From NCBI GenBank assembly GCA_964472445.1, contig CAYYMU010000001.1, forward strand, positions 1 through 57,134: a DNA stretch of 57,134 nucleotides, in the 5' to 3' direction. This DNA is from an uncultured Desulfobacteraceae bacterium. GTDB taxonomy: Bacteria > Desulfobacterota > Desulfobacteria > Desulfobacterales > ETH-SRB1. The notes below the pieces were generated by a model. That model ran no database searches, had not been told where the DNA came from, and saw nothing but the letters and a program-made list of their open reading frames with translations. How positions within the stretch are numbered: position 1 is the stretch's first letter; the number at the start of each line of letters is the position of its first letter. Position numbers and translations under genes: made by a program. Below are positions 14,634 to 32,714 of the stretch, one piece after another.

Positions 14634-16139
14634 CTATGGGATCGGTATTACCCCTATAACATTATTAAAAAGATTAAGCGCCAGTTTAGGGCATAACCCC
14701 AGTAAGATTGATACGGCTGCTATCATAAGAAGCGGAATGCTCATCGTTAAGGGTGGATCTTTAATTTTATCGTTCGCCAGATTTGGATTTAATGGTCCAA
14801 AAAATATAATTTTTACTGACCTGAATGTATAGGCAACCGTCAGTATAATTGCGCCGGATGCGAAAATCGCAACCATAAGCCCGGTAGGCATTGTCTGAAG
14901 GCCTGTTTTAAATATGCCTGTAAACATAACCCATTCCGCAGGAAAACTGGACATTGGCGGAAAACCGGAAAGCATGGTCGCTCCCATAATCCAGAGTGCT
15001 GCTGTTATCGGCATTTTCTGTGCAAGTCCGCCCATCTGTCTCATATCCCTTGTTCCTGTTGTATAAACCAGTATGCCGGCAGTTGAAAACAGAATGGTTT
15101 TCCCCATAATGTGTCCCAGGAAAAAAAACATTCCGCCCTCAATACTCGCTATAGTGAGAGCTGATATACCAAGAAGCGAATAAGCAAGCTGGCTTATTGT
15201 TGAACAGGCAGCGAAACGTTTTACATCGGTTTGCGCCATAGTTAAAAGGGACCCGTATACCATTGTTATAAGCGCCATTATCATTAGAGGTATTGAAAAT
15301 GCTTTAAAGTCGGCAGGCAGCGGAAAAACTATTACTCGTACCATAACATAGGCCGCAACATTTGCATAAACAGCAAGAAGACCGGCTATACATGTGGGAT
15401 GCTCTGCATGAACCCATGGCATCCAGACATGAAAAGGAAAAGCCGCCATTTTTATCAGTATTGCAATAAGAAGTATAAATATAATCCAGGGAGTCATTGG
15501 ATTTCCCGCAAGATTACTCATATCTGCAATATTAAAACTTCCGATCTGACTATAAGCCATCAGAAATCCTGCAATAAAAAAGGCCGCTCCGATAACCGCC
15601 CACATCAAACAGATCATAGCCACTCTTACTCTGTCAACATACCCAAATGTGGCCATAATAAAATATAGAGGTATGGGCAGCACTTCGAGAAAAAAATACA
15701 TGGCTATCATGTTTTTTACAAGGCATACGCCCATGAAACCCATAGGAAAACCAAGAAACATGGAATAAAAACGTGTATAGTGGTTTAAATATGTACGCTC
15801 ATCCACATCACCGTATATAGCCTCTATCCTGTGATCTATATAGTGTATTGCATAAAATGCAAGAGCAGTGCAAAGGCCGTTAATTATCAACGCAACCGGC
15901 AGGCTTAACCCGTCGCCGAGAAGCCCGAATGTGATTGCCGAATCAATAAATGGATATTCTTCAATAATTACTTCGCCATGATAGACTCTTACACATGCCA
16001 TAAGTAAAAGCACTGTTGAATATAAAAGGCTGCAACCTGCTATCCATCCGGCCTTTCTTCCTATCAGGTGTCTGGTCAACAGTATGAATAAAGAAGCAAT
16101 CGGCGGAACAATTATTATTTGCAAAAGAATATGAGACAT
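14634..16139 (-). CDS. NuoM/N/MrpD-like antiporter-type subunit (third large subunit)
   Basis: 501-aa polytopic protein with proton-conducting membrane-transporter signatures (FPFHVWMPWVHAEHPT, SQLAY, GGL..KMP). Confidence 0.85.
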   Translation of the reverse strand: MSHILLQIIIVPPIASLFILLTRHLIGRKAGWIAGCSLLYSTVLLLMACVRVYHGEVIIEEYPFIDSAITFGLLGDGLSLPVALIINGLCTALAFYAIHYIDHRIEAIYGDVDERTYLNHYTRFYSMFLGFPMGFMGVCLVKNMIAMYFFLEVLPIPLYFIMATFGYVDRVRVAMICLMWAVIGAAFFIAGFLMAYSQIGSFNIADMSNLAGNPMTPWIIFILLIAILIKMAAFPFHVWMPWVHAEHPTCIAGLLAVYANVAAYVMVRVIVFPLPADFKAFSIPLMIMALITMVYGSLLTMAQTDVKRFAACSTISQLAYSLLGISALTIASIEGGMFFFLGHIMGKTILFSTAGILVYTTGTRDMRQMGGLAQKMPITAALWIMGATMLSGFPPMSSFPAEWVMFTGIFKTGLQTMPTGLMVAIFASGAIILTVAYTFRSVKIIFFGPLNPNLANDKIKDPPLTMSIPLLMIAAVSILLGLCPKLALNLFNNVIGVIPIP

Positions 16140-16167
16140 CTTTTTATCTCCGTAATGTCATAAGAAA

Positions 16168-18198
16168 TTATTTTAATACCAGAAATAGCAGACAAATAAA
16201 AACAACAACAACATAGGATATGTTATACAAAAGATCATCCGACTCGGTCCGCAGTTTAAACATCACCGCAGGGGCTCTCTGCGTAAAAAAAGCAGGGATT
16301 TTTCTGTGGACGAAATTGTCAAACCTTTCTTCAAGTGTATAAGCCACAAAATCGGCTAACTTAAATGTTCCGTCCATAAAAAATTTTAAATAAAAAGCAT
16401 CGACGAACCATCTGTTCCAAAAAAATTTATGAAAGATCTGAAGGCTTGATGATCTCTCAAGAATAGCCTTGGGATCCCATTTTTGAGCTATATACATAAA
16501 ATATGCAGGCACTGCTCCAAGAAGTATAGCGGCTATCGACAGCACTGAAACCAGCAAATGGTAATTAAACGGATGTTCTCCGCCATGTGCAACCGGTAAA
16601 GCAAGCGTTCCAACGAGGTTCGAGTGAAACCCCTCTTCTAAAAGATGTTCTACACGTGGACCAACCAGGCCAAGAAATATAATAATTACAGCCAGAACAG
16701 CGCATGCGCCCCACATGGTGAAGGAAACCTCATGAATATGTCCTCCTTCCTGCTTTATATGCTTTATCTGCTTACTCTCCTGGCCATAAAACACCATGCC
16801 GATCATACGGGTTGTGTAAAATGCCGTTAAAACTACGGTAATTACAGCAAGAATAAATATCGGCAACTGATGGGCTTCCAGAGCTGAAAGTAAGATAGCA
16901 TCCTTGCTGAAAAAACCAGGCATAGGCGGAATCCCCATCAAACAAATTGCAGCGATAAGCATGGAAATCCAGGTCAACGGCATATACTTTCTCATTGAAC
17001 CCATATCATTCATATAAATTGAATGAGCGGAATGTATAACAGAACCGGCACACAGAAAGAGGCAGGCCTTGAAAACAGCATGGCTTACAAGGTGAAATAT
17101 GCCTGATGTTGTTCCACCTATCAATACTGCTTCACTTAAACCGGCCATACCCAGGCCCACCCACATGTAACCAATCTGGCTTACAGTAGAAAATGCAAGA
17201 GCTTTTTTAAGCTCTAAGGCGACCATGCCCTGAGTTGCTGCAACAAATGCCGTAATAACCCCTACCCATGCTACAATCGTAAAAAATAAAGAGGCCTCAT
17301 GAACACCGGCCACCCAGTAGCCGTAATAAAACATGGGAATAAACCTGGCGACAAGATAAACCCCGCTTTTAACCATAGTCGCCGCATGAATTAAAGCTGA
17401 AACAGGACCCGGGCCTGCCATGGCCTCCGGAAGCCATTCATGCATGGGAAACTGAGCTGATTTACCAATGGGGCCTGCAAGAAGAAGCACTGTAGTCAGC
17501 ATAATTAGACCCGGGGTCTTAGCCATTTCCGGCATCCAGATAGAGACTGTCGTGTAAAGCTCCATTATATTCAGGGTTTTGGCATAATAAAATATAATTA
17601 ATATGCCGCCTAACATGATAAGATCGCCGACACCCGTTACAACCAGTGCCTTTAACCCGCAATGGCTTGGGGAAACCATTTTGGTGGGTGAAGGACCGCC
17701 TATCCAGTATTTTTCTTCATCTCTATAATAATAACCGATCAAAGCATAACTGCACAAACCAACCAGTTTCCATCCAACAAAAAGAAACAGCAGATTATTT
17801 GTAAGCACCAGCAGGAGCATGCTACCTACAAAAAGGTTTACCAGCATTAAAAACCTGGTTATCCCCGGGTCTCCCTTCATATATCCAAGGCAGTAAACAG
17901 TAATAATACAGCTTATTACGGCAACCACAACTGCCAGGATAATGCTGAGCGGATCTACCAATATCCCGAATTCCACTACAAAAGGTATCTCAAGCCACTT
18001 CACAGAACTTTCGAGAGGCAATGTTTCCGGATGAAACAGGTGCGTCAAGAGCTTCAGGCTGGCGATTGCAGATAAAAAGGGAAAAAGTACGGCCGCGGCA
18101 TTTCTTAGCTTAGGATGTACCCTATCCAGCAAAAATATGAAAACGATCCCAAGAAAAGGGAAAAGCACACATAACCATGCTATTGTCAACGTATCCAC
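16168..18198 (-). CDS. mrpA: NuoL/MrpA-like antiporter-type subunit (N-terminal MrpA part with long C-terminal extension)
   Basis: 676 aa with NuoL-type motifs (FVGWKLVGLCSYALIGYY, AQFPMHEWLPEAMAGP). It lacks the MrpB-like C-terminal domain of full-length MrpA, which is encoded separately here. GTG start with AGGAGG RBS. Confidence 0.8.
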   Translation of the reverse strand: MDTLTIAWLCVLFPFLGIVFIFLLDRVHPKLRNAAAVLFPFLSAIASLKLLTHLFHPETLPLESSVKWLEIPFVVEFGILVDPLSIILAVVVAVISCIITVYCLGYMKGDPGITRFLMLVNLFVGSMLLLVLTNNLLFLFVGWKLVGLCSYALIGYYYRDEEKYWIGGPSPTKMVSPSHCGLKALVVTGVGDLIMLGGILIIFYYAKTLNIMELYTTVSIWMPEMAKTPGLIMLTTVLLLAGPIGKSAQFPMHEWLPEAMAGPGPVSALIHAATMVKSGVYLVARFIPMFYYGYWVAGVHEASLFFTIVAWVGVITAFVAATQGMVALELKKALAFSTVSQIGYMWVGLGMAGLSEAVLIGGTTSGIFHLVSHAVFKACLFLCAGSVIHSAHSIYMNDMGSMRKYMPLTWISMLIAAICLMGIPPMPGFFSKDAILLSALEAHQLPIFILAVITVVLTAFYTTRMIGMVFYGQESKQIKHIKQEGGHIHEVSFTMWGACAVLAVIIIFLGLVGPRVEHLLEEGFHSNLVGTLALPVAHGGEHPFNYHLLVSVLSIAAILLGAVPAYFMYIAQKWDPKAILERSSSLQIFHKFFWNRWFVDAFYLKFFMDGTFKLADFVAYTLEERFDNFVHRKIPAFFTQRAPAVMFKLRTESDDLLYNISYVVVVFICLLFLVLK

Positions 18199-18213
18199 GT
18201 AATGACCTCCTAA

Positions 18214-19707
18214 TTAAAAACCTACAGGTATCACAAATTGAATTGCAGTTGATATAATCTTTGAGCTGAAGATACCTGCCAACAGTATCCCGACAGCCAT
18301 AACCTGTATGGGAATAAGCATACTTAAAGGAACTTCATCCATGCGAACCGACTCGTAAGCCTTATCACGGCCATAATCAGGCATAGGTTTCTCAAATGTG
18401 GCAATCTGTATAACTCTAAAGAAATAGACTACATTCAGGATGCTGCTAAACAACAGAACAGCGACAAAAATCCACTTCCCTGCATCAATTGCACCCATGA
18501 TTAGATATATCTTGCTGAAAAAACCGCAGGTAGGCGGTATGCCGACCATGGAAAAAGCGCCAATAAGAAAGGCTGACATAGTAAACGGCATTTTTCTATA
18601 TAAGTTTTTAAAGTCATATATATTGCAAGCGCCCATTTTATAGACAATAGCCCCTGCGACCAGAAACACACATCCTTTTGTTAACGCTTCATTTAAAATA
18701 TGAAGAACAGCACCGGTAAGACCGTATCTGTTGGCCAGCCCTATACCTAAAGCAATATATCCGATCTGGGCCACAACCGAGTAAGACAGCATCTTCTTCA
18801 GGTCAGTCTGTGCAATAGCATATATTGAACCAAGGACTATCGCAACTGCGGCCATCCAGGTAAGAACAGTTGTCACAGGAATTGTCTCTATGAAAAAAGA
18901 AGGCTTAAAAACAGTAAACATAACCCGTATCATCAGGTAAGCCGCCACCTTGGTCATAAGAGGTGCGATAAGAGCGCTAACTGTAGATGGAGCATCTGCA
19001 TAAGCATTAGGAGCCCATGCATGCAATGGATAAAGTGCCATCTCAATGCTTATGCCAACCACCATAAAAATCCCAGCAGTAAGCACAACTTTTGAATCAT
19101 ATAATTCAGGCAATAATTGAGCCACATCATGCATATTTAGAGAACCTGTGGCCATATACAGGTAACCTACACCTATAAGATAAAATGAAGCTCCAATTGT
19201 ACCCATAATAATGTATCTAAATGCGGCGAAAGGAGCTCCATCCCGTCCAATAGCGATAAGAGCATAACATGAAAGGGCACCAATTTCCAAAAACACAAAG
19301 ACATTAAACAGGTCACCAGTTACAACTATTCCAAAAAGGCCTGTAACAAGAAGCAGAAAAAGCGTGTAAAACGGAACAACCTTCTCAGGCATTTCCTTTT
19401 GAACACTTTTTTTGGAATATATGCCAACAGTAAGAGCTACAAAAGATATTATTATTAAAACAAAAGCATTGAGGTAATCGATTGCATACTCAATTCCCCA
19501 TGGAGGCGACCACCCACCAAGATAATATGAAAATGGGCCACCCGTTATTACCTGGTTTAAAACACCGATCGAGCAAACAACCGTAACAAGAAGAACGGCA
19601 ACGGCCCATGGGTAGCACAATTCTTTTTTCCACCATCCAATAACCGGGGTCAAAAGAGCCGACATCAAAGGTATTACAATCACCATAACAGCAAAGTGCG
19701 TTGCCAT
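18214..19707 (-). CDS. mrpD: MrpD/NuoM-like antiporter-type subunit
   Basis: 497-aa polytopic protein (YPLHAWAPNAYADAPS, AQIGY). Begins 2 nt after the mrpC stop. Confidence 0.85.
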   Translation of the reverse strand: MATHFAVMVIVIPLMSALLTPVIGWWKKELCYPWAVAVLLVTVVCSIGVLNQVITGGPFSYYLGGWSPPWGIEYAIDYLNAFVLIIISFVALTVGIYSKKSVQKEMPEKVVPFYTLFLLLVTGLFGIVVTGDLFNVFVFLEIGALSCYALIAIGRDGAPFAAFRYIIMGTIGASFYLIGVGYLYMATGSLNMHDVAQLLPELYDSKVVLTAGIFMVVGISIEMALYPLHAWAPNAYADAPSTVSALIAPLMTKVAAYLMIRVMFTVFKPSFFIETIPVTTVLTWMAAVAIVLGSIYAIAQTDLKKMLSYSVVAQIGYIALGIGLANRYGLTGAVLHILNEALTKGCVFLVAGAIVYKMGACNIYDFKNLYRKMPFTMSAFLIGAFSMVGIPPTCGFFSKIYLIMGAIDAGKWIFVAVLLFSSILNVVYFFRVIQIATFEKPMPDYGRDKAYESVRMDEVPLSMLIPIQVMAVGILLAGIFSSKIISTAIQFVIPVGF

Positions 19708-19709
19708 AT

Positions 19710-20117
19710 CTAAACTCCCGTGTCTTTTCTTATTTTCATAATTTCATCAAGCTCTAAGGTCTTATATCTCCTGAAAATCAGGATAAGCACCGCAAGTGCA
19801 ACACCTGTCGTGGCAATTGAAACAACTATCGCCGTAAGCATCAGTACATGGGGAAGAGGATTAATATAACTGGCAACATCGATAAGAGCATGTCCATGAC
19901 CGTGAGCCGCATGAGCATCCCCTAAGAATATTGGTACCGTTGCTCCTCCCTTCTTTACGCCGATGGAAATGTAAAAAAGAATCACAGCAGACTGAAATAT
20001 ATTCATCCCAATCAGCTTCTTGACCAGATTCTTCTTGCCCACCATTGCGTAAAGACCAATCAACAGCAAAATGACATACGCCCAGAAGTTGTATTTACTG
20101 ACTATGTACTCAAGCAT
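19710..20117 (-). CDS. mrpC: MrpC/NuoK-like subunit with His-rich loop insertion
   Basis: 135 aa. N-terminal FWAYVILLLIGLYAMVGKKNLVKKLIGMNIFQSAV is typical of MnhC. Extra loop GDAHAAHGHGHA lies between helices 2 and 3. Confidence 0.85.
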   Translation of the reverse strand: MLEYIVSKYNFWAYVILLLIGLYAMVGKKNLVKKLIGMNIFQSAVILFYISIGVKKGGATVPIFLGDAHAAHGHGHALIDVASYINPLPHVLMLTAIVVSIATTGVALAVLILIFRRYKTLELDEIMKIRKDTGV

Positions 20118-20118
20118 A

Positions 20119-20403
20119 TCAGTCTCCTTCTCCCTTGCGTTTTTTTCTTAACATAAGGATACAGGCCATACCTGCTGTAAAAATAACCGTAGTCTCACCC
20201 ATGGTATCGTATCCCCTGTAATCCGCCAAAACAGCGGTAACTATATTGGGTGTCGCTGTTTTTTCCAGCGCTTCCTGAATATACTTAGGTGAAACGTGTG
20301 AATTGGCCGGAGAATTGGGGTCACCCCAATCAGGCATATCTTCAACGCCATATATGAGTAGTGCCCCAGTCAAAATTATTAAGATTGTAGCAACAACTTT
20401 CAA
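20119..20403 (-). CDS. MrpB-family small subunit (MbhE-like; equivalent to the MrpA C-terminal region)
   Basis: 94 aa. IVTAVLADYRGYDTMGETTV is the MnhB-domain signature. TTG start overlaps the upstream stop (TTGA), with GGAGG 8 nt upstream. Confidence 0.7.
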   Translation of the reverse strand: MKVVATILIILTGALLIYGVEDMPDWGDPNSPANSHVSPKYIQEALEKTATPNIVTAVLADYRGYDTMGETTVIFTAGMACILMLRKKRKGEGD

Positions 20404-20645
20404 TCTTTTGACCTCCTTTTTGTTTTACTAACCGCTGCAATAAACAAGACTGTTCCAACCCCTGCGCCAACCGAAGCCTCGGTAAAGGCCACATCAACGG
20501 CCCCCATCTGTGCCCAGAGAATACACATGAAAAAGCTGTAAGCGCCGAGAATAATAACGGCAGCCAGAAGATCTTTGATGGTAATGGCTGCAACCGCACA
20601 GATAATAATCAAAATACAGAGAATAAGATCGAGTTGCCAGATCAT
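20400..20645 (-). CDS. DUF4040/MbhD-like small membrane subunit
   Basis: Three-helix protein with FTEASVGAGV. ATG 20645 overlaps the mrpG stop (ATGA). The ORF-track start at 20666 is probably an over-extension. Confidence 0.7.
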   Translation of the reverse strand: MIWQLDLILCILIIICAVAAITIKDLLAAVIILGAYSFFMCILWAQMGAVDVAFTEASVGAGVGTVLFIAAVSKTKRRSKD

Positions 20646-20965
20646 TTGTTTTCCTCCCTGGTCCACGGTTTAACACCACACCGAAAAGCGGCTCTGGAAA
20701 TTGCATGAGTCGCTGTGGGATTGGCTAAAAAAACGAAAACAGCTATAACAATCAGCTTAATACTGTCTAAAACAGCTCCGTGATAAAAAATGTGATATAA
20801 TGCAATACCCATAAGAGATATAAGCACGGCAAGAGTGTCGCCTTTTCCAGTGGCATGCATCCGGGAATAAAAGTCTGGAAAACGGATCAGACCGATAGTC
20901 CCGGTAGCGAAAAAGAAACATCCTATTAAAACAAACACTATGGATATTATTTTAATAATTTCCAT
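20642..20965 (-). CDS. mrpG: MrpG subunit
   Basis: GTIGLIRFPDFYSRMHATGKGDTLA is the MnhG signature. The start overlaps the mrpF stop. Confidence 0.85.
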   Translation of the reverse strand: MEIIKIISIVFVLIGCFFFATGTIGLIRFPDFYSRMHATGKGDTLAVLISLMGIALYHIFYHGAVLDSIKLIVIAVFVFLANPTATHAISRAAFRCGVKPWTREENK

Positions 20966-21231
20966 CAAATTTCACCTCTTCCTTCAAAGTACTTTGCTGC
21001 TGCCAGAGTACCGATAAAATTTAAAAAGGCGTACACCATAATAATATCAAGGAACATTTCTATTCTCTTATATATAAAACCCATGAGGACGAGGACTATT
21101 AAAGTTTTTGTGCCTATGGCTCCAACACTTACAATTCGATCAATAATAGTTGGCCCGAATACCACCCGATACAGACATATTAAAACAAGCGAGCAAAGAA
21201 AAATGCTTACACCCAAATAAAAACTTTCCAT
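20965..21231 (-). CDS. mrpF: MrpF subunit
   Basis: 88 aa. YRVVFGPTIIDRIVSVGAIGTK is the MnhF signature. Confidence 0.85.
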   Translation of the reverse strand: MESFYLGVSIFLCSLVLICLYRVVFGPTIIDRIVSVGAIGTKTLIVLVLMGFIYKRIEMFLDIIMVYAFLNFIGTLAAAKYFEGRGEI

Positions 21232-21277: not shown

Positions 21278-22228
21278 TCAATCAACTTGATGTTTTGTTG
21301 TTAATTTATATTTTTTAAGCTTTGAATACAAAGTACTCCGGCTTACATCGAGCTGTTTTGCAACCTGCAATTTGTTCCAGTTGCATTCCTGCATAATTTT
21401 TACTAAAAACCTTTTTTCATTTTCTTCAAAAGAGGTTACTGCCTCCTGCTTATGCCCGCTTAAAACTGCATCTAAAATACGGGAAGGCAATAAATCGCTG
21501 CCGATCATTTCTTCTTTTGTCAACAAAAAGGCATGCTGAATAATATTTTCCAGTTCCTTAACATTGCCTGGCCATGAATAGTCCATAAGAAATTGCATTG
21601 TATCAGAGGTAACGCCTTTAACTTTTTTTTTCAGTTCGTCATTCAGCTGTTTTATAAAATATTGAACCAGAAGGGGGATATCTTCTTTTCTCTGTCTTAA
21701 AGAAGGCAGGTGAATATTAATCACATTAAGCATGTAAGAAAATTCTTCGTTAAAAGTTCCCCTTTCAACTTCTCTTCCCAAATCTGTATCAACGGCGGCG
21801 ATTATCCTGATGTCAGTCATTATTTGCTTTTTCCCGCCAAGTCTCATAATTTTCCGGCCCTGCATAAACCTTAAAAGCTTTATCTGGGTCATGGGAGAAA
21901 TTTTGTCTATCGCAGATAAAACAACTGTTCCGCCATCAGCCAGTTCAAGACAACCTTTCTTCTGGCGCACGGCTCCTTCAAACGAACCGATTTCATGGCC
22001 AAAAAGTCCGCTTTCCAGCATGAGCCGAGGACAGGAAGAACAATTATACACCTCAAAAGCATTGCTTTTTCTGTTGCTGTGCAAATGAATGGCCTGTGCA
22101 ACTAATATTTTTTCTGTCCCTTCTTCTCCACGGATCAAAATTGTGGTATCAGTAGGAGCAAGATTCAATATCATATTGTAAACCTGCTTCATTTTTGCGG
22201 ATTGTTTATTTATGTCCTGTATTCTCAA
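21278..22228 (-). CDS. Sigma-54 activator-like AAA+/HTH protein with degenerate catalytic motifs and no N-terminal sensory domain
   Basis: 316 aa and collinear with the AAA+ and Fis-HTH part of the ORF at 30843-32714 (for example SFEENEKRFLVKIMQECNWNKLQVAKQLDVSRSTLYSKLKKYKL). The motifs read GEEGTEK (Walker A), VVLSAIDKI (Walker B), GSFEGA (GAFTGA) and FNEEFSYMLNV (RxDLYYRLNV). TTG start with AAGGA RBS. Confidence 0.75.
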   Translation of the reverse strand: MRIQDINKQSAKMKQVYNMILNLAPTDTTILIRGEEGTEKILVAQAIHLHSNRKSNAFEVYNCSSCPRLMLESGLFGHEIGSFEGAVRQKKGCLELADGGTVVLSAIDKISPMTQIKLLRFMQGRKIMRLGGKKQIMTDIRIIAAVDTDLGREVERGTFNEEFSYMLNVINIHLPSLRQRKEDIPLLVQYFIKQLNDELKKKVKGVTSDTMQFLMDYSWPGNVKELENIIQHAFLLTKEEMIGSDLLPSRILDAVLSGHKQEAVTSFEENEKRFLVKIMQECNWNKLQVAKQLDVSRSTLYSKLKKYKLTTKHQVD

Positions 22229-22244
22229 GCTTAATCCTTAAATG

Positions 22245-22736
22245 TTAATCAGATTGACCCTGCTCTTTGTTTGAAGGAAGGCCTCCTGTAGATATATCCA
22301 AAAAAATTGAGAGCATAACGGCCATAACAGCAATCCCTACACCGGTCTCAACGCCAAGGATACCAAGCGATCTTGCATGGGGAACCTCCACATGCAAAAT
22401 TTTGGCAAGTGCTCCATAGTCTAAAAAATTCCCGCCCAGTATTATACACAATATCCCTATTCCAACATATATTGCGACGCCGAGACTGCATAAAATCGTA
22501 TTTGATCTTTCTGACATCATACGCAAAACATTATCCAACCCATAAGTTATTACAAGTAGAATTAGACTTGCACCCAGAATTACTCCTCCCTGGAAGCCTC
22601 CTCCAGGGCTGTAATGTCCATGCGCAATAACATAAAGAGCATAAATCTGCATAAATGGTATTAATAACCGGGAAAGTGTCTTAACAATAACATCATCCGA
22701 TTGTTTGGTCATGTCTGCTGTCTGTTTGATTGTCAT
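22245..22736 (-). CDS. mrpB: MrpB subunit
   Basis: 163 aa. LLIPFMQIYALYVIAHGHYSPGGGFQGGVILG is the MnhB signature. Confidence 0.85.
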   Translation of the reverse strand: MTIKQTADMTKQSDDVIVKTLSRLLIPFMQIYALYVIAHGHYSPGGGFQGGVILGASLILLVITYGLDNVLRMMSERSNTILCSLGVAIYVGIGILCIILGGNFLDYGALAKILHVEVPHARSLGILGVETGVGIAVMAVMLSIFLDISTGGLPSNKEQGQSD

Positions 22737-22782: not shown

Positions 22783-23496
22783 TTACTTTAACGCCACAAA
22801 AATAGGCGCCATATCGAGAACATCCTGGACATACACATGATCAGCTTCCATAAAAATATGGGCGATCCTGTCCTCCATATCACCGGTCATCAGATCTTCA
22901 GCCACCTTCTTGCTGACAGCATGCACATAATAGACACCGTCTTTAACATCTACTGTAATAGTACCAGGTGTAAGTGTTATCGAATTGGCAAGAGTAACCA
23001 TCGATATATCGCTTTCTAATTTTGACTTAAATTTCATTATCTTCGGATCAAGCAGGCTTCTCGGGCCCAGAGCCAGACGCGCTACATGTAAATTAGACAG
23101 GAAAATCTGGTATAAAAGCCATGGAATGTATATAATAAATCTTTTTACTATTACACGCATATCTCCTGTTCTTGGATTGGCAAACATCAGATCATAAGAC
23201 AAATATGATATCAGCGCACAGCAAAGCATGCCAATTGTGATATGAAATACATCATAGTGACCTGATAAAAGCAGCCAGAAACCCAACAGAATTATGAAAG
23301 CCGATATAAATTTGACAATCTTGGCTTTTGTCTGTTTAGCCCCTGTAAATATTGCCTCTATTCTTTTTCGATGTATAGCCTGAGTCTCAGATGTCAGTTT
23401 GGCGGCAATATCCAATATCTGTTTGGCTCTATCTCTCGCATCATCTAACATTTCAAAGGACTTGTATGTGGCTTGAACCAGTACTGTTACTTCCAT
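22783..23496 (-). CDS. mrpE: MrpE subunit with about 65-aa hydrophilic N-terminal extension
   Basis: The C-terminal 170 aa carry MnhE signatures (WLLLSGHYD, ANSITLTPGTITVDV, YYVHA). GAGGAAAAGG RBS supports the long form. Confidence 0.8.
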   Translation of the reverse strand: MEVTVLVQATYKSFEMLDDARDRAKQILDIAAKLTSETQAIHRKRIEAIFTGAKQTKAKIVKFISAFIILLGFWLLLSGHYDVFHITIGMLCCALISYLSYDLMFANPRTGDMRVIVKRFIIYIPWLLYQIFLSNLHVARLALGPRSLLDPKIMKFKSKLESDISMVTLANSITLTPGTITVDVKDGVYYVHAVSKKVAEDLMTGDMEDRIAHIFMEADHVYVQDVLDMAPIFVALK

Positions 23497-23589: not shown

Positions 23590-24402
23590 TTAAGGAAGCA
23601 GCATAACGGGCGTATGTGATTTTTCCATCACCCTGTATGCCAGCCTGCCTAAAAAAATATCTTTAAATTTATACCTGCGTTTTGCACCTATAATTATCAT
23701 GGTGGAATCATAGTCCTGCGCCGCGCGGAGTATCTCTTCAACAGTTCTTCCCGCATACATGTGATATTCTGCTGAAATACCGAGCTTAATGCATGCATCA
23801 CGGTTATTAACCATTTTATCCATGAGTTGCTGAAGATCGCGCAGGGTTAATTTCTTAAATATTACATTTACAAGTTCGAGTTCGTCTATTAATTCCTTAA
23901 AATCAGCGACACATTTTAATGCTTTTTCATATTCAGTCGACCAGTCTGTGGGCAATAAAACACGTTCAAACATTCCTTTTGAACTAAAATTTAATGTTTT
24001 TTCATCGTTATCAACAGCTATAACAGGAATATTAGCTGATTTAACAATATTATTTAATGTTGAGCCACCAAATATTTTTCGGTCGCTTTGTTTATCAAAA
24101 TGAATAACTATCAGAGAAATCTGGTAATTTTGGATGGTTTTTAAAACGCTTGCAACAAGGTTTTCGGGTTCAATTTTTATGCTCGCATTTATACCGTAAT
24201 CACTCAGTTTCTTTTTCCATGTCTCAAATCGATCAGATACCAGACCCTTTAATCTGCTTTTTTCGATCCCCTTGTCTTTGCCTAAGGCCGAAAGGAGAAC
24301 TATTTCCCGGCATCCAAATTTACTGAGGCCTGATAAACCCTCCAGGACTTTAAAATCGGGTTTATCCAAATTTGTAGCATATAGTATTTTTTTTACGTCC
24401 AT
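23590..24402 (-). CDS. Tandem-domain universal stress protein
   Basis: 270 aa with two USP halves. Same strand as mrpE and 94 nt upstream of it. Confidence 0.8.
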   Translation of the reverse strand: MDVKKILYATNLDKPDFKVLEGLSGLSKFGCREIVLLSALGKDKGIEKSRLKGLVSDRFETWKKKLSDYGINASIKIEPENLVASVLKTIQNYQISLIVIHFDKQSDRKIFGGSTLNNIVKSANIPVIAVDNDEKTLNFSSKGMFERVLLPTDWSTEYEKALKCVADFKELIDELELVNVIFKKLTLRDLQQLMDKMVNNRDACIKLGISAEYHMYAGRTVEEILRAAQDYDSTMIIIGAKRRYKFKDIFLGRLAYRVMEKSHTPVMLLP

Positions 24403-24655: not shown

Positions 24656-24671
24656 TGCAACATCCGTGCCT
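24656..24671 (-). promoter_or_regulatory. Sigma-54 (-24/-12) promoter candidate for the USP-mrp-like operon
   Basis: The minus strand reads AGGCACGGATGTTGCAT, against the consensus TGGCACG-N4-TTGCW. GG-N10-GC spacing is exact and only the first T is mismatched. It lies about 255 nt upstream of the USP start codon. Confidence 0.6.
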
Positions 24672-24756
24672 TTTGAGCTATTTTTTGCATTTATCCGTTT
24701 TTCTTAGATAAGATAGAATGTAAAACCAGTATTTAGCCAAAGATACAACACAAATG

Positions 24757-24773
24757 TGTACAATATTTATACA
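24757..24773. promoter_or_regulatory. Candidate enhancer (UAS) dyad TGTA-N9-TACA upstream of the -24/-12 element
   Basis: TGTACAATATTTATACA lies about 100 bp upstream of the -24 element. The 12-mer TGTACAATATTT recurs at 24855-24866. A second dyad, TACAC-N6-GTGTA, is at 24810-24825. Confidence 0.3.
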
Positions 24774-25157
24774 TGCAGGAACCTATTTTCAGAAACCTAT
24801 TCATATCTTTACACAATTGCGTGTATGATATTCAGACATTTTATGTTCAATAACTGTACAATATTTTTCCAGAGTTATCTAAGCCTATGAACTCATAAAA
24901 ACAGACAAATAATATTATCCATAAAAATATCACGACAGACTCGCCTTGAAATATTTTGTGATTTCCTGCAGATTCATTAATATTACAGTTCTGTCTACAT
25001 TTTAACTTGACAATTTAAGCTCTATCTGTTTATTTTGGCAAATATTTATATGCAGAAACAGGGTAAAATATATGCAAAAATAGGGTAAAAGTTGGCAGAT
25101 TATGAATGTCACATTTGCCCTGTGAGCTGAGAACTGTGTTTAAGGAGGATGTTTTTT

Positions 25158-26024
25158 ATGAAATTCAAGAAAATGCTGTTTGTAACCGACTTTGACGAAT
25201 TATGGTTTGATGCCCTTGAATCATTGATGGAACTAAGGAAGGCAGGGCTTAATCATGTGGTTTTTCTCCACGTAATAAGAAAAGAAAGCGTTACAATGCG
25301 ACGCGGAAAAGGCTACCTCAAAGACGAAGATATCAGATTAAGACAAATGGCGGATGTTCGCTTTATTGAATGGGCTGAAAGTATTTTTGAAAAAGGTATG
25401 GAGTGTGGCGCGTATGTTGTCGTTGGTGACCCTCTTCCTAAAATTCTTTCAACAGCTGAAACAGAGGGTATAGACCTGATAGTAACTAAAGCCCATAAAA
25501 CAACAAAATTAGAACGACTGTATGCAGGTTCAACGACCATAGAACTCCTGCGGCGGTCAAAAACGCCTGTTCTGGTTCATAAATATATGCTTCCTTCTGG
25601 AAAGATCAATGATAAGCCTTTTGAAGTTCCTCTGTTTACAACCGACTGGTCATCTCCATGCGAAAGAGCACTGGAACAAATTATTACTCTCAAAAATATC
25701 GTCAAAAAAGTAGTTGTGGTACACGTTGTTAATGATGAAACCGTAAAAGGCAAATCAAAAAACGATCTTATGAAAATTCAAAAAGAAAATAAAAAAAGAC
25801 TGGGAGATGTCTGTGTTGCCTTTGAAGATGAAGGCATAGAGGCGGAATACCATCTTTGCATGGGAGAAACCGTTTCTCAGATCGAAACAGCAGCTCGTGA
25901 ACATGGCGCAACAATGGTTGTTATGGGCGCAACAGGAAAAGGAGCATGGCGGACACGCTGGCTTGGCAGTGTTTCTCAGAAACTTACAGAAATTTCAGAA
26001 TTGCCTACGTTGTTAATACCTTAA
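25158..26024 (+). CDS. Tandem-domain universal stress protein
   Basis: Paralogue of the ORF at 4748-5635 (MKFKKMLF.TDF.EL.F.ALESL.EL+KAGL...). AGGAGG lies 9 nt before ATG 25158, so the ORF-track start at 25149 is probably too early. Confidence 0.85.
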   Translation: MKFKKMLFVTDFDELWFDALESLMELRKAGLNHVVFLHVIRKESVTMRRGKGYLKDEDIRLRQMADVRFIEWAESIFEKGMECGAYVVVGDPLPKILSTAETEGIDLIVTKAHKTTKLERLYAGSTTIELLRRSKTPVLVHKYMLPSGKINDKPFEVPLFTTDWSSPCERALEQIITLKNIVKKVVVVHVVNDETVKGKSKNDLMKIQKENKKRLGDVCVAFEDEGIEAEYHLCMGETVSQIETAAREHGATMVVMGATGKGAWRTRWLGSVSQKLTEISELPTLLIP

Positions 26025-26118: not shown

Positions 26119-26514
26119 TCAGGCTAAAAATTTTTTCAACATAGCTGCCATCTCTTCCGGCTCAACCGGCTTTTCAATATATACTTCAGGTTCTGGTATA
26201 GTCTGACCTTCAGCCTCGGAAAGAGCTTTCTGCGAACGGATAAAAGTCCTTTTTGCTATTCCTGAAAATACCATCACAGGAATATCGCTTAGGTTGGGAT
26301 CTGTTTTTACTTCACGGTACATTTTAATACCACTTTCCTTTGGCATTAATATGTCTAAAATTATCAGATCGGGCTTTTCTTTCCGTATCTTTTTAAGAGC
26401 TTCTTCGCCGTTAACAGCAACTTCAGGCTTAAAGCCACTATCTTCAACTACAGTTGAACAAAATGTTCTCACATCAGCATCATCATCGACAATTAAAACT
26501 CTTTTCTCCATCAT
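26119..26514 (-). CDS. Single-domain CheY-like response regulator
   Basis: Receiver motifs VLIVDDD, DLIILDILMP and a conserved Lys region. AGGAGG precedes ATG 26514, so the ORF-track start at 26544 was trimmed. Confidence 0.85.
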   Translation of the reverse strand: MMEKRVLIVDDDADVRTFCSTVVEDSGFKPEVAVNGEEALKKIRKEKPDLIILDILMPKESGIKMYREVKTDPNLSDIPVMVFSGIAKRTFIRSQKALSEAEGQTIPEPEVYIEKPVEPEEMAAMLKKFLA

Positions 26515-26662
26515 CGTCCTCCTTTTACTCTGAGACTTTTGCAAAATATACTTAAATTAACAATTTTTATCTACTGAAAACCAGTAAATTTTCGAGTAAG
26601 TTTTTCGTTTGATTGAAAAAAATTTATCTACTATATTGATTTTTAAAATATTACAAGAAAAA

Positions 26663-28231
26663 TTATTTTTTGTCTCCTGGCTCATTATTAGGAAGCTGGA
26701 TAGTAAATTTTGTTCCTTTGCCTGATTGCGATTCAACATCTATGGTTCCGCCATGTTCATGTATTGTTTTTTGGGTGACCAGCAACCCAAGGCCAGTTCC
26801 TCTCGATCCTTTTGTGCTGAAAAATTGAGCAAAAAGTTTTTCCTGCACCTCTTTATCCATGCCACAACCATTATCAACAACTTCAAAAACAACTCCGCCA
26901 TCTTCTTTCTGTAAAACATTTACCTGTACCTGCCAATCCTTCTCAGTATCAGGATCAAAAATACAGGCATCAATTGCATTTGAGACTAAATTGGTAAGGC
27001 TGGTATGTACACCTTTTGGATCTAAATATACCTTTCCAATATCCTTATTGAGATTACATACTATTTCAATATTATTTTCTTTTGCTTTCTCTTCCAAAAG
27101 CTCACAGACTTCACCTGCTATAGTATTTGGATCGCAATTCTCATATTCAGGCTCACGTTCCTTGGAATAGCTTAGCAGGTCCAGAACAAGGCCGGACACC
27201 CTGCCAATATTTCTTTCCACCATATCCCAGCCTGTTTTTAATTTGCTGTCAGGATATCCCTGAGCTAACGCATCTTTCTGGCCGTCTTGAAACATCTTCC
27301 CAAATGCTGAGTTAACAATATAAACTCCGCCTTTAAGCCCGTTGAGAATATTTTTTATGCCATGGGCAAGGCCGGCTACTGTCTGGCCGACAGCCACCAG
27401 TCTTTCCGACTGAATTAATTCTTTTTGCAGTTGTTTAATTTCTCTAAGATCCTGGAAAAAGCCAACACTGCCTATAGGTCTTTCGTCTTCACAAAGTATC
27501 GCGCCTGAAAATCTGACCGGCACCAATTCACCTTTTTTTGCCTTTAAAAACGTATCCTGTCCTGTAAAAATAACATTAGCACAACTTGTCCTGCCTGAAA
27601 AAGCGGCAGAGATCTTCTGCATTATCTCTTCAGGATAAAGATCTTCTGCTTTTTTTTCTCTTTTAACTTCATTCTCGGTATATCCAAAAAGTTTTTCAGC
27701 AGCCTTGTTAAATATTATAATATTATCTTCTCTGTCAGTGGCAATAATTCCATCAATCGACCGCTGTACAAGTTTATTCTCAAATTCATATCTTCTCTTT
27801 ATCTCTTCTGTTTTATCCTTTACCATTTTCCACAATTCATTGGCATACCTGTTCAATATCTTTTTCGTTTTCAGCCGATCCTCAGCCCTTTCAAGAGCAA
27901 CTGAAAGGACCTGATCGCTAACCGGCTTGTTAATGAAATCTGATGCACCCAGATGAAGAGACTGAACTGCGGATTCCATATCACCATGACCGGTAATAAC
28001 AATAACCTCTGTGCTTGGATTAATTTTTTTTATCTCCTTTAAAACCTGTATACCGTTCATGCCGGGCATTTTTATATCGGTAAGCACTATTGGAAAAAAT
28101 TCTTTTTTAAAAAAATTAATGCCCTCTTGTCCGCTCTCAGCGGCTACCACTTCATACCCATCGCTTTTAAGAGACATGCTGAGAAGTTTTCTAATACCTT
28201 CTTCATCGTCAATCAGTAATATTTTTGACAT
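26663..28231 (-). CDS. Hybrid protein: N-terminal receiver, PAS-like domain, HisKA and HATPase histidine kinase
   Basis: ILLIDDEEG...TDIKMPGMNG receiver, H-box LAHGIKNIL, and N/G boxes (NLVSNAID, DNGCGM, GTGLGL). ATG 28231 lies 2 nt after the upstream stop with a GGAG RBS. Confidence 0.85.
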   Translation of the reverse strand: MSKILLIDDEEGIRKLLSMSLKSDGYEVVAAESGQEGINFFKKEFFPIVLTDIKMPGMNGIQVLKEIKKINPSTEVIVITGHGDMESAVQSLHLGASDFINKPVSDQVLSVALERAEDRLKTKKILNRYANELWKMVKDKTEEIKRRYEFENKLVQRSIDGIIATDREDNIIIFNKAAEKLFGYTENEVKREKKAEDLYPEEIMQKISAAFSGRTSCANVIFTGQDTFLKAKKGELVPVRFSGAILCEDERPIGSVGFFQDLREIKQLQKELIQSERLVAVGQTVAGLAHGIKNILNGLKGGVYIVNSAFGKMFQDGQKDALAQGYPDSKLKTGWDMVERNIGRVSGLVLDLLSYSKEREPEYENCDPNTIAGEVCELLEEKAKENNIEIVCNLNKDIGKVYLDPKGVHTSLTNLVSNAIDACIFDPDTEKDWQVQVNVLQKEDGGVVFEVVDNGCGMDKEVQEKLFAQFFSTKGSRGTGLGLLVTQKTIHEHGGTIDVESQSGKGTKFTIQLPNNEPGDKK

Positions 28232-28232
28232 A

Positions 28233-30323
28233 TCAATTCTCCGATGCATGTAAAAAAACAGGAAATCTCAACTCAAAGGTTGTGCCAACACGTTCTGTGC
28301 TACTTACCTCAACTGTTCCTCCATAGTCATGGACAATTCCATAACTTATGGACATGCCAAGCCCTGTACCCTTACCAACATCCTTGGTGGTAAAAAAGGG
28401 CTCAAATATTCTCTCTACGTTGCTGCCAGGAATACCTATACCAGTATCAGCTACAATAACCACAATCTGATTTTCCTGCACAAATGATTTTATTGCCATA
28501 GTTTTTTTAAACTCTGGCCCTATTTTATCGACCTTTTCATCTATAGCATCCACTGCATTAGTTACCAGATTGATAAAAACCTGCTCAAGCCGGTTGTTAT
28601 CAGCCATTATGGGTGGCAAATCTTCGGCTAATTCAAGATCAACTTCTATCTGATGCAATCTTAGCTGCTGGCCCAATACTTTAAATACATCTCTGATGGG
28701 CTTATTAATATCTACCATTGACTGCACAGAAGGAGATATTCGGGAAAACTCCCTTAAATGATTAATAATTGAGGATGCTCTATCCACATAGCTGCTCATT
28801 TCTTCAGACACTGTTTTCAAGTCTTCAATATCTATTTTTTTACCTTGTTTAACTATTTTCTCAATAAAATTACTTCCAATCTTGATAACATTTAAAGGCT
28901 GATTTAATTCATGGGCTATACCAGAAGCCATGGTGCCTATAGTAGTCATTTTGCTGGCCTGTACTAACTGGGCTTCCTTTTGTATGCTTTTTGTAATATC
29001 AGTAGTTGCCACAATTAACACTTTTTTCCCCATATATGTTGACGGGCAAGCCATAATATTTACATAAAACATACTCTTATCCTTATGCACATGCCTTTTT
29101 TTTGTAAAGAAGCCCCTTTGGCCGGAGGAAAGTTTTTGGAACCCGTCTATAACTTCTCCGACTTGTTTATGGCCCAAATCGCTGAAAGACATTTTAATTA
29201 ATTCTTCCCTCGAATAACCGTAAGTATCAATGACCCGTTCATTGATATCCAGAATTTTAAAATTATCCCTGTCTATAATAAAAATTGGATCAGGATTGGT
29301 ATTAAACAACAGTCTATATTTTTCCTCAGATGATCTGAGCTCTTTCTCATAAGCTCTCACCTTATAAAGCATGTGCTGAAAAGAGTCCCCGAGTCTGACG
29401 ATTTCATCTCCTTTATAGTTCTGATAAATGGGACACTCCATACATTGATCTAGCTTTCCCGGAAATTTTCCTGATGGTTCACCAAAGCACAGTGTATCTT
29501 GAACATACCAGCAGGGTATATTGTCATTCTTATAAGCCGGACAATCTGTTTTGTTGCAACGCAGCAATTCCCAGCATGATATGGATCTTTCAGAAAATTT
29601 ATCAAAAACACAGGAATGTTCTTCACGGCTGATCTTATCAACAGCCCTGGTCAGCTTAACAATAGGTCGGATGGCATATCTGTTCAGCCACAGAGTCAGA
29701 AAAAAACCAAGCGCTAATACTGATGTAATAGCTCTGAGTATATTCTGGTTTCGCACAGAGGTAACTGTTTGCTGAATCGGCGCCCAGCTAAAACCAACCG
29801 ACAAAACCCCCAAAAGCTTTTTTTCATTTCCGTGACATTTATAACAGGCCTTTTCATTATAAACAGGAATAGCATAGCTTAATGTTTTTGCCTTACAGCC
29901 TTTACAATATCGCTTTTCAACGCCATGTTCTATTTCTTTTGTCCTGAATGCTGTCAGGGTAACAATAGACTTTGTCTTCCTGTTGATATCATCAGGGGCT
30001 TTCCCGTTACGCTTTATAATACCTATGTCATCGCAGAGATGAACCACCTCCATATCTTCAAGGGTTCCAAGTCGTTCCAGTATAGCCTGAACCTGGTCCA
30101 TTTCGCCGTCAAGCATTGGATACTCTATGCTTTTCATAACAGTATCACTTATTTCCATGGCCATTTTCTTGTGATATTCCGTATAATTACGAATTTGAGT
30201 AAAAACATCAAAATAACTAAATGTGCCCAGCACAATAAGCAGAATTATGCTCATGCCCAGTATTATTCTGATTCTTAAACTTCCTGATATGAATTGTTTT
30301 AAATTTACCCAGCTAAACATCAA
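28233..30323 (-). CDS. Sensor histidine kinase with periplasmic CxxCH (heme c) domain and cytoplasmic 8-Cys module
   Basis: 696 aa with TM helices at about aa 20-38 and 196-214. CYKCH lies in the intervening domain. A Cys-rich stretch at aa 238-297 carries two CW dipeptides. This is followed by a PAS-like domain, the H-box IAHELNQPL, and HATPase motifs. Confidence 0.85.
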
Positions 30324-30842: not shown

Positions 30843-32714
30843 TTATTCATCCACATGATTGAGATTATATTTTTTCAGCTTTGCATACAACGTGCTTCGG
30901 CTGATGTTAAGCTTTTTTGCGACCTGGGACTTGTTCCACTGATATTCTTCCAAAACCCCGGTTAAAAATTTTCTTTCATTTTCCTGAAAAGAACTTATTG
31001 TATCTTCTTTATCTGCAATAGAAAATATATTTGGGGGGAAATTTTGTTCATTAATATATTCATCCTTAGTAAGAATAAAAGAATGCTCAATAATATTTTC
31101 CAGCTCTCTGACATTGCCAGGCCAGCTGTAATTTATCAGCAAATTCATAGCATTGGAAGAAATCCCTTTGACCTTTTTATCCCCTCGCGAGTTGAGCTTT
31201 TGCAAGAAATATTCTACTAAAAGTGATATATCGCTGCGTCTTACTCTTAAAGGAGGAACATTTACCGGAATAACATTTAAACGATAATACAAATCCTCAC
31301 GAAAGTTTCCTTTTTCCACTTCTTTACTTAAATCCTTGTTCGTAGCTGTTATTACCCTGGCATCGACATCTATGGTTTTTGTTCCGCCCAACCTTTCGAA
31401 TTTTTGGAATTGAAGAAATCTGAGAAGCTTCACCTGTGAAATTAAAGGAATTTCTCCTATTTCATCAAGAAAAAGTGTCCCTTTATTCGCCAACTCAAAG
31501 CGTCCGATCTTTTTATGTGTAGCGCCGGTAAAGGCTCCTTTCTCATGGCCGAACAATTCGCTTTCTAATAATGTGTGAGGGTAAGCTGAACAGTTTACAA
31601 TGACAAAACGGCCTTCTTTTCTACGGCTGTACGAATGTACTGCTTTTGCAATAAGTTCCTTTCCAGATCCGCTTTCTCCCTGAATCAAAACCGTTGCATT
31701 GGTAGGAGCTATATCTAAAATCAAATTATAAATCTGGCGCATCTTATGATCTTTTCCTATTATGCCTCCAAAACCTGAAAATGTTTTAACCTTTTCATCT
31801 AATCCTTTCAGCCTTTCCTCGTTCAGGGCTATTCTTCTGATATCACCGGCAACCTGTGAAAGCATTAGATGAAAAAAACGTGAATCATCTTTTGAAAAAA
31901 CATTAACATCTGATGCCAGCAAAATCACTCCCCCCGCAATATCCTTTTTACCTATCGGAACAACAGATAAGGACTTATAATTTGCATAGTTTTTCAACCA
32001 CCTGCAGCCAAAAGGATTAAGTTCGCCAATATCCATTGGAGTACATATCGAATTGATAAAAGATACAAGCTCCTCTTTATCCTCTACTGACGGGCATCTA
32101 TAACCATCGACATTAACAAATCCGTCTTTTTCCCGGTTAAAAACAAAAGGCATAACTTCTTCAAACAAAAATATATCTTTGATTCGTTCGATTATAAAAT
32201 CAAAGGCATCGGCCAGATATTTTTTATCACCAAGGTTATATGTAACATTGCAAATAGCCTTAATTTCCTTGTGTGATTTCTCAAGCGCTTCGGTCTTTTC
32301 CTTTACAGCCGTTTCAAGATTTAATGTATAACGCTTAAGTTTTTGTCTGGTTTTTAATTTAGCTTCAGCGCGTCGCAGAGCCATTGAAAGCGTGTGTTTG
32401 TTAATAGGTTTTTCTATAAAATCAGAAGCGTCCAACTGTATTGATTTAACGGCCTTTTCCAAATCTCCGTAACCTGTTATTATAATAATTTCTGTATCCG
32501 GATTTATCTGCTTTATTTTTTTTAATACCTCAATTCCGTTCATACCGGGCATTTTAATATCTGTTAAAACAATAGAAGGCTCCTCCTTTTTGAACAGCTC
32601 AATACCTCTTTCCCCATTTTCAGCTGTTATAACATCATATCCGTCATCTCTAAGAGATATGCTCAATAATTTTCTAATGCCTTCTTCATCATCTATAAGT
32701 AACAGTTTCAACAC
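30843..32714 (-). CDS. Sigma-54-dependent response regulator (receiver, GAF-like domain, AAA+, Fis HTH)
   Basis: 623 aa with a canonical receiver. The AAA+ motifs are intact: GESGSGKE, GHEKGAFTGA, LFLDEIGE and FREDLYYRLNV. C-terminal HTH. Confidence 0.9.
   Translation of the reverse strand: MLKLLLIDDEEGIRKLLSISLRDDGYDVITAENGERGIELFKKEEPSIVLTDIKMPGMNGIEVLKKIKQINPDTEIIIITGYGDLEKAVKSIQLDASDFIEKPINKHTLSMALRRAEAKLKTRQKLKRYTLNLETAVKEKTEALEKSHKEIKAICNVTYNLGDKKYLADAFDFIIERIKDIFLFEEVMPFVFNREKDGFVNVDGYRCPSVEDKEELVSFINSICTPMDIGELNPFGCRWLKNYANYKSLSVVPIGKKDIAGGVILLASDVNVFSKDDSRFFHLMLSQVAGDIRRIALNEERLKGLDEKVKTFSGFGGIIGKDHKMRQIYNLILDIAPTNATVLIQGESGSGKELIAKAVHSYSRRKEGRFVIVNCSAYPHTLLESELFGHEKGAFTGATHKKIGRFELANKGTLFLDEIGEIPLISQVKLLRFLQFQKFERLGGTKTIDVDARVITATNKDLSKEVEKGNFREDLYYRLNVIPVNVPPLRVRRSDISLLVEYFLQKLNSRGDKKVKGISSNAMNLLINYSWPGNVRELENIIEHSFILTKDEYINEQNFPPNIFSIADKEDTISSFQENERKFLTGVLEEYQWNKSQVAKKLNISRSTLYAKLKKYNLNHVDE

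Follow-up and report, generated by a model that had tools for sequence, protein, structure and literature searches.

In a 57,134-nt contig of an uncultured Desulfobacteraceae bacterium (GTDB ETH-SRB1; CAYYMU010000001.1; this whole stretch is referred to as the window) we investigated a 316-aa gene located within an operon for a Mrp-like membrane complex. Judged by profile and predicted fold its product is an evolutionary member of the bacterial enhancer-binding proteins (bEBPs), yet it departs from the functional form in every catalytic motif; we refer to it as pseudo-bEBP (PS). PS always runs in the direction of an operon of universal stress protein (USP) and Mrp-like genes, within which or at whose head it lies, with an intact sister bEBP (FL) upstream; the gene is under purifying selection, and its degenerate state is itself constrained. 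From its sequence we consider it reasonably probable that PS is an ATPase-dead, sigma-54-blind paralogue modulating, and probably dampening, activation by FL, which would represent a feedback encoded by the operon itself.

Motif losses in a conserved bEBP fold

The ORF listing gives the gene a TTG start. Its 5' neighbor belongs to MnhB (PF04039) and its 3' neighbor to MrpF_PhaF (PF04066) according to Pfam. A preliminary description of the window, made from the letters alone, had already placed a 316-aa gene between mrpB and mrpF on the same strand, which agrees with the ORF listing and Pfam. Its spacer of 46 nt on one side is right, while the 17 nt given for the other side has to be corrected to 16 nt. 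The gene and the signal preceding it are located as follows:

21278..22228, minus strand: pseudo-bEBP gene, 316 aa, encoding a degenerate AAA+ sigma-54-interaction domain, an AAA lid and an HTH_8 helix-turn-helix (HTH), without a regulatory domain
22235..22239, minus strand: Shine-Dalgarno-like AAGGA, 6 nt 5' of the TTG, read from sequence

The public gene call of this protein (P0001) comprises 298 aa and starts at M19. Orthologues, however, share the N-terminus M[RK]IQ[DE]INKQS and keep the residues encoded from the TTG to the first internal ATGs (MRIQDINKQSAK). Because of this conservation, together with the AAGGA in front of the TTG, the 316-aa form is better supported than the 298-aa form. 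An exact-sequence look-up with the 316-aa protein accordingly returned no match, since public calls start at M19, and P0001 served as the query in its place.

Pfam assigns Sigma54_activat with 171 bits (residues 7–173; cutoff 20.2), AAA_lid_14 with 93.6 bits and HTH_8 with 46.3 bits. The AAA+ match starts at residue 7 and no sensory or receiver domain was detected by Pfam at the N-terminus, as had been described before. BLASTP aligned PS collinearly with residues 324–619 of the 623-aa FL, with 52% identity over 299 residues; the collinearity with the AAA+ and HTH part of the response regulator at 30843–32714, already reported in the preliminary description, is thereby borne out. PS also matches the solved structure of ZraR (1ojl) with E = 1e-69, and an AlphaFold2 model (AF2; pLDDT 84.7) superposes on the AAA+ domains of LuxO, FlrC, NtrC1 and FleQ at 1.2–1.8 Å root mean square deviation in Foldseek. 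Both profile and fold thus place PS in the bEBP/Sigma54_activat (PF00158) family.

We aligned the motifs with FL, with the solved ZraR, NtrC1 and NifA and with 24 canonical relatives. The Walker A motif, canonically GESGSGK, reads GEEGTEK in PS and departs from the GxxxxGK of functional bEBPs. Walker B has changed from LFLDEIGE to VVLSAIDK, so that the hhhhDE pattern is lost, and the L1 loop, which contacts sigma-54, reads GSFEGA instead of GAFTGA. In the arginine-finger segment FREDLYYRLNV has become FNEEFSYMLNV (R160N, R166M). All of these changes had been listed in the preliminary description; what it had missed are the changes of sensor I from ATN to AVD and of sensor II from GNVRELEN to GNVKELEN (R224K). 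A shift of the motifs, as opposed to their loss, was considered and rejected, because the alignments to ZraR, NtrC1, NifA and the canonical relatives are free of gaps through the motifs: they are substituted, not displaced.

bEBPs hydrolyse ATP and engage sigma-54 by means of their Walker motifs, arginine fingers and GAFTGA, and most GAFTGA mutants fail as activators of transcription (PMC7175178). Since the catalytic motifs are jointly lost and L1 drifts freely within the family, activation of sigma-54 by PS appears very unlikely. This also bears on the idea that PS has remained active, hydrolysing ATP and activating sigma-54 with the help of non-canonical motifs. In favor of such an activity, PS keeps the Walker A lysine, the switch asparagine and an intact overall fold; the Walker A glycine-to-glutamate exchange, the DE-to-SA exchange in Walker B and the changes of both arginine fingers, sensor I and sensor II nevertheless occur together, orthologues vary in L1 or have it deleted, and the GAFTGA mutants tell against it as well. 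We regard this explanation as highly improbable. Annotation pipelines label these proteins as 'sigma-54-dependent transcriptional regulator' or 'HydG', which is functionally misleading.

Conservation and origin of the family

Homologues were searched among 5.8 billion proteins, and 185,579 species genomes were scanned. We found about 97 clusters of PS proteins of approximately 300–320 aa, which share 49–79% identity and show the same degeneracy. Look-ups and the genome scan located 34 copies in genomes, 25 of them from species-level metagenome-assembled genomes (MAGs). Carriers are Ca. Desulfaltia, Eth-SRB1, Desulfofervidaceae as well as cold-seep and hydrothermal Desulfobacterales and Thermodesulfobacteriota. 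A profile search of 1.84 billion representatives revealed no further degenerate single-domain clades; clustering at 50% collapses the whole PS family to one representative (P0078).

Within the family the degeneracy follows a fixed pattern. Walker A is GxxGTEK in all members, reading GExGTEK everywhere except for GAEGTEK at one genomic locus, and glutamate stands for the second glycine of the motif throughout the 34 loci and the approximately 97 clusters. The Walker B aspartate is replaced by S, T, C or N, except in one clade that retains it but has DR in place of DE. L1 occurs as GAFEGA, GAFDGA, GAFNGA or xxxKGA or is partly deleted, and the sensor II arginine is lysine in nearly all members. 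Of 147 columns invariant in the canonical relatives 76 are retained, the lost ones including Walker A, L1, Walker B, sensor I, the arginine fingers and sensor II, while the switch asparagine is kept. Several derived residues are themselves fixed among orthologues of 49–79% identity: E39 (for glycine) and Q231 are invariant, T158 is invariant or nearly so, and K224 (for arginine) is present at a frequency of 0.96.

The reading frame of PS is intact in 34/34 loci. For 15 orthologues the median dN/dS (Nei-Gojobori) is 0.10 with a range of 0.056–0.195, compared to 0.08–0.125 for flanking Mrp genes and 0.15 for FL. If the loss of all catalytic motifs is taken alone, PS could be viewed as a non-functional relic of a duplication, a pseudogene in the making. 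We find this scarcely credible given the intact frames, a dN/dS of about 0.10 that equals that of the neighboring membrane subunits, the invariant derived residues, and the conservation of the gene across lineages whose intergenic DNA no longer aligns. The possibility raised in the preliminary description, a strain-specific decaying fragment, is likewise dismissed by the spread of orthologues over about 97 clusters and 25 species-level genomes together with the low dN/dS and the intact frames.

The PS-carrying loci L010–L037 belong almost all to uncultured seep or hydrothermal Desulfobacterales and Thermodesulfobacteriota. Partial copies were also binned as Methanosarcinaceae (P0095) and Anaerolineae (P0037), probably due to binning errors. 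Apart from PS, we observed long bEBP-like chains with two or three Sigma54_activat modules (P0121, P0123, P0138, P0151, P0169, P0170, P0182, P0222). One module of these chains has a degenerate Walker A, Walker B or L1 and another is near-canonical; such chains would correspond to a pairing of active and inactive partners joined in one protein.

A bootstrapped neighbor-joining tree of the AAA+–HTH region recovered PS as monophyletic in 200/200 bootstraps. PS and the co-located FL proteins with their orthologues form one clade (200/200) with other canonical bEBPs outside, and in no case is a PS nearer to its own neighboring FL than to FLs encoded in different genomes. That the gene was duplicated independently several times, or was converted by the neighboring bEBP, was thereby ruled out. 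The monophyly and the lack of closeness to the own FL are explained by one ancient duplication without ongoing conversion, and the sequences indicate that PS goes back to a single event in which the AAA+/HTH part of the cluster's intact bEBP was duplicated.

The two domains of PS have evolved differently since. Identity in the HTH amounts to 78% among PS, 78% among FL, 71% between PS and FL and 54% between PS and other bEBPs. In the AAA+ core PS proteins share 61% compared to 79% within FL, i.e. the PS core evolves faster. The HTH regions of the two window proteins had been called nearly identical; with about 70% identity they are similar rather than nearly identical. Their recognition helix SRSTLYxKLKKY is the same except for one variable position. 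PS carries a predicted Fis-type HTH (HTH_8, 46 bits) that is constrained like that of the active paralogue, which implies that DNA binding is retained. The resemblance between the HTHs of PS and FL, together with a single set of conserved dyads (see below), suggests that PS would bind at sites common with FL.

The operon, its predicted promoter and a putative feedback

The genes surrounding PS in the window are the following:

23590..24402, minus strand: first operon gene, tandem-domain USP (ORF and Pfam)
22783..23496, minus strand: MnhE/MrpE-like subunit (Pfam)
22245..22736, minus strand: MnhB-domain subunit, directly 5' of PS (Pfam)
14634..21231, minus strand: rest of the Mrp-like cluster with MrpF, MnhG, MbhD, MbhE, a NuoK/MnhC-like and three Proton_antipo_M subunits (Pfam)
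30843..32714, minus strand: intact paralogue FL, a response-regulator bEBP of 623 aa with all catalytic motifs canonical (alignments)
28233..30323, minus strand: sensor histidine kinase
26663..28249, minus strand: REC-PAS-HATPase protein
26119..26544, minus strand: single-domain response regulator
25149..26024, plus strand: second USP gene, divergent, sharing the regulatory intergenic region

According to Pfam the MrpA/D-like, B, C, E, F and G subunits are all encoded, and in the same direction, which is the composition of a Mrp-type cluster, for which a transport role is predicted. Mrp-type genes lie within 6 kb of PS in 34/34 copies, compared to only 4/87 canonical matches. An intact bEBP is located upstream of PS at every locus with enough flank, and the signalling set of kinase, REC-PAS-HATPase protein and response regulator (26119..30323) recurs at orthologous loci.

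We distinguished three arrangements. In Desulfofervidaceae (A) an FL with PAS and GAF domains is followed by USP, USP, PS, MnhE, F, G, MbhD, MbhE, MnhB, C, D and further genes. Arrangement B starts with a histidine kinase and an FL with a receiver (REC) domain, continues at some distance with two USP genes, and then has PS, a small ORF, USP, MnhE, MnhB, F, G and so on. In the window (C) an FL with REC is followed, after other genes, by USP, MnhE, MnhB, PS, MrpF, G and the rest. The position between mrpB and mrpF reported before is thus true of arrangement C; elsewhere PS lies directly 5' of mnhE, or 5' of a USP gene. The MnhB-domain gene has been relocated as well: the order is E-F-G-MbhD-MbhE-B-C-D in Desulfofervidaceae (L008, L009 ~12670–13140) and E-B-(PS)-F-G-MbhD-MbhE-C-D in the window clade (22245–22736), and therefore the operon has been rearranged around the regulator gene.

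Upstream of the operon the minus strand contains a predicted sigma-54 promoter and enhancer-like dyads, both of which are conserved:

24656..24671, minus strand: predicted sigma-54 -24/-12 element AGGCACGgatgTTGCA, 254 nt 5' of the USP that is the first operon gene (consensus and conservation)
24757..24773, minus strand: promoter-proximal enhancer-like dyad TGTAT-N7-GTACA
24794..24812, minus strand: AT-rich box GTAAAGATATgAATAgGTT, conserved and lying between the dyads; it may be the site of a bending protein, which is unproven
24822..24838, minus strand: second enhancer-like dyad TGTCT-N7-ATACA
24844..24860, minus strand: third, weaker dyad TGTAC-N7-GAACA, just outside the strict pattern and 22 bp centre-to-centre from the second

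Only three sigma-54-like sites of this quality exist in the whole window, and the other two (6662–6677, 8006–8021) are located inside ORFs. An equivalent GG-N10-GC element occupies the corresponding place in 24/26 orthologous loci and in all three arrangements; in arrangement B it directly precedes PS. Two to three dyads of 17 bp with the consensus TGTMY-N7-RKACA lie upstream of the promoter, again in all three arrangements. The strict dyad pattern has three matches in the window, two of them at this site, and the dyads fall in the 24750–24860 stretch to which the preliminary description had pointed. The AT-rich box recurs as AAAGATATAAATATGTT in most loci with the arrangement of the window. 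On the minus strand between 20900 and 24400 we found no terminator-like site separating the operon genes, and no internal promoter or terminator stands out around PS, where sigma-70-like and terminator-like matches are at shuffle expectation.

If PS is transcribed from the sigma-54 promoter of the operon that FL is predicted to activate, it would accumulate as the operon is induced, and its effect on FL would amount to feedback, because it would be made from the operon's own promoter. Nucleotide binding and hydrolysis would be lost through the changes in Walker A (G to E), Walker B, sensor I, sensor II and the arginine fingers, and sigma-54 contact through the L1 loop, whereas PS has kept its AAA+ fold as well as the type of its DNA-binding domain. 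Two routes are conceivable. PS may occupy the TGTMY-N7-RKACA dyads in common with FL, and/or both may form mixed oligomers unable to hydrolyse ATP or to engage sigma-54. A protein-protein role is favored, since the complete AAA+ domain and lid are under selection and a pure DNA competitor would need none of them; most simply, this role would be co-assembly with FL. A precedent is given by RedR1/RedR2, where an inactive form co-expressed with its active paralogue abolishes activation via preferred hetero-oligomers (PMC10084136).

Several points weigh against a dampening role. The sigma-54 promoter and the dyads are predictions from consensus and conservation. Binding of PS to DNA and to its paralogue, its lack of ATPase activity and the negative sign of its regulation are features that we infer, and the retained Walker A lysine makes binding of some nucleotide or another ligand possible. 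The recognition helix ISRSTLYxKLKKY also occurs in unrelated bEBPs among the matches, so that the same specificity of PS and FL is plausible but unproven. Furthermore, HrpR/HrpS and FleQ/FleT are paralogous bEBP pairs that can be co-activators, and the sign of regulation may differ accordingly.

The last point leads to a different explanation, in which PS is an obligate positive partner: as a structural or scaffold subunit it would help FL to assemble on the three-dyad enhancer as a hetero-hexamer, resulting in positive feedback as in HrpR/HrpS or FleQ/FleT. HrpR, HrpS and FleT, however, are described as active bEBPs and not as motif-dead. The strict co-occurrence of PS with the intact paralogue and the selection acting on its AAA+ core would be in line with a positive partner, and there would be room for three dimers on the three dyads. 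Heteromeric pairs of bEBPs have been described (PMC10084136), and there are bEBP-like proteins with two AAA+ modules in tandem, one of them degenerate. But both arginine fingers are lost in the window clade, so that PS could not complete the ATP site of its neighbor, and RedR1/RedR2 hetero-oligomers are active only if both partners are active (PMC10084136). Taken together we consider a positive partner unlikely.

PS could also be an independent atypical EBP of the TyrR/NtrX/VpsR kind, repressing or activating sigma-70-type promoters at targets of its own and apart from FL. EBPs with altered GAFTGA or Walker motifs do regulate sigma-70 promoters (PMC6158489; bioRxiv 10.1101/2023.06.06.543975), and NtrX is among the structural matches of the PS model. 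Near the locus, however, no promoter signal other than one of the sigma-54 type is conserved, with sigma-70-like matches at shuffle expectation; PS has no sensory domain, unlike the listed atypical EBPs, and it is strictly linked to a sister bEBP with a similar HTH. An independent role therefore seems rather improbable.

An extension of the dampening role is more speculative, and we put it forward as a doubtful possibility. The former nucleotide pocket may have been re-purposed, with Glu39 by the retained Walker A Lys40, plus Lys224, Gln231 and Thr158, locking the AAA+ domain in a nucleotide-free state. Such a dummy protomer would co-assemble with FL on the three-dyad enhancer, and the ratio of dummy to active protomers would set promoter output like a rheostat. 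Tandem-USP proteins, which are always encoded beside PS, might control PS in trans (cf. PspA-PspF, HrpV-HrpS) and thereby tie the expression of the Mrp-like ion-translocating complex to the energy status of the cell in syntrophic sulfate reducers.

Some further features of these loci were noticed. Public N-termini are over-extended by about 40–65 residues (L005 10001–10130, L006 8229–8355; P0068–P0074), and the conserved 'HFGTKVA' peptide is the spuriously translated sigma-54 promoter TGGCAC-N5-TTGC. The 254-nt leader between promoter and USP start contains a hairpin with a 9-bp stem (5 G-C pairs; 24545–24569) that is terminator-like on the plus strand only. About 60–100 nt 5' of the divergent USP gene at 25149 (plus strand) two direct repeats of 22 bp in tandem (TTTTACCCTRTTTYTGCATATA, minus-strand reading) are located at 25047–25090; no obvious equivalent was seen in the related locus L004, and they may be the site of another regulator. 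A small multihaem cytochrome c gene (Cytochrome_C554/C7; 30401–30856) overlaps the 3' end of the FL gene by 14 nt and sits between FL and the sensor kinase, where it is absent in the related loci L004 and L007. Directly beyond the Mrp-like operon, in opposite orientation, lies a Rnf/Nqr-type cluster (RnfD, FMN_bind, two Rnf-Nqr subunits) with an adjacent RseC_MucC gene (~9500–14400; L001 17810–20897). In the related Desulfofervidaceae MAG locus L009 a 923-aa open frame at 5165–8003 represents a full-length bEBP; it is uncalled in the gene table, which lists only a 64-aa HTH_8 fragment (7809–8003).

Comparison with known regulators

The activity of bEBPs is the textbook case of ATP-driven transcription activation. 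To our knowledge, inactive or mixed bEBP rings have so far mostly been studied with engineered mutants. The PS family would be a naturally selected, ancient and catalytically dead bEBP that is maintained next to its active sister and has its gene in the presumptive target operon. It would provide a ready-made system to ask how many active protomers a bEBP ring needs and how pseudo-enzymes become regulators, and it points to sigma-54 control with built-in feedback of a Mrp-like ion-translocating complex. Eth-SRB1 and Desulfofervidaceae are known as partners of alkane-oxidising archaea; several of the sulfate reducers with this complex are labelled as such partners, and energy-conserving membrane complexes are of central interest in them. 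Full-text literature searches found, among the papers covered, no EBP linked to Mrp, in accordance with the preliminary description, which had known of no regulator embedded in an mrp cluster, and no earlier account of pseudo-ATPase bEBPs.

The operon shares MnhE, MnhB, MrpF, MnhG, MbhD, MbhE, NuoK-like and NuoL/M/N-like genes in one co-directional cluster with Mrp (Mnh/Pha) antiporter operons and the Mbh module. Unlike these, it has a transcription-factor gene inside or at its head, leading USP genes and a predicted sigma-54 promoter.

In domain composition PS resembles group 4 bEBPs such as PspF and HrpR/HrpS, which consist of AAA+ and HTH only and have no N-terminal sensor. PspF has its negative regulator, PspA, encoded within the operon that it targets, a comparable feedback layout. 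Group 4 bEBPs are controlled in trans by protein partners (PMC7175178), and HrpR/HrpS are duplicated paralogues that form hetero-hexamers (PMC10084136). PspF, HrpR and HrpS keep functional Walker, arginine-finger and GAFTGA motifs and activate sigma-54, however, whereas PS has lost all of these motifs.

Atypical EBPs (TyrR, PhhR, HupR, HsfA, NtrX, VpsR and the NtrC of Rhodobacter and Caulobacter) have an altered or missing GAFTGA, some also a non-consensus Walker motif, and act as repressors or sigma-70 activators (PMC6158489; 10.1101/2023.06.06.543975). By the definition of a bEBP homologue with non-consensus GAFTGA (PMC6158489) PS is comparable to them. They keep sensory or receiver domains, which PS does not have, and they are stand-alone proteins, whereas PS is a shadow copy of an adjacent intact paralogue and lies in an operon with a predicted sigma-54 promoter. 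The degeneracy is also fuller in PS, including the Walker A glycine, Walker B, sensor I, sensor II and both arginine fingers.

With the heteromeric pairs HrpR/HrpS, FleQ/FleT and RedR1/RedR2 PS shares the paralogy and the linkage to its partner, while its co-assembly is predicted only. RedR1 and RedR2 of Aromatoleum anaerobium are 97% identical, both catalytically competent and only conditionally inactive; the inactivity of PS appears fixed, ancient and subject to selection. Mutants of NtrC binding DNA without activating are mentioned as laboratory 'repressor forms' in the part of PMC12754779 that cites North et al. 1996. In summary, it is the combination of complete and ancient degeneracy, absence of a sensor domain, a strictly linked intact sister and a place within a Mrp-like operon predicted to be driven by sigma-54 that sets PS apart from the known groups.

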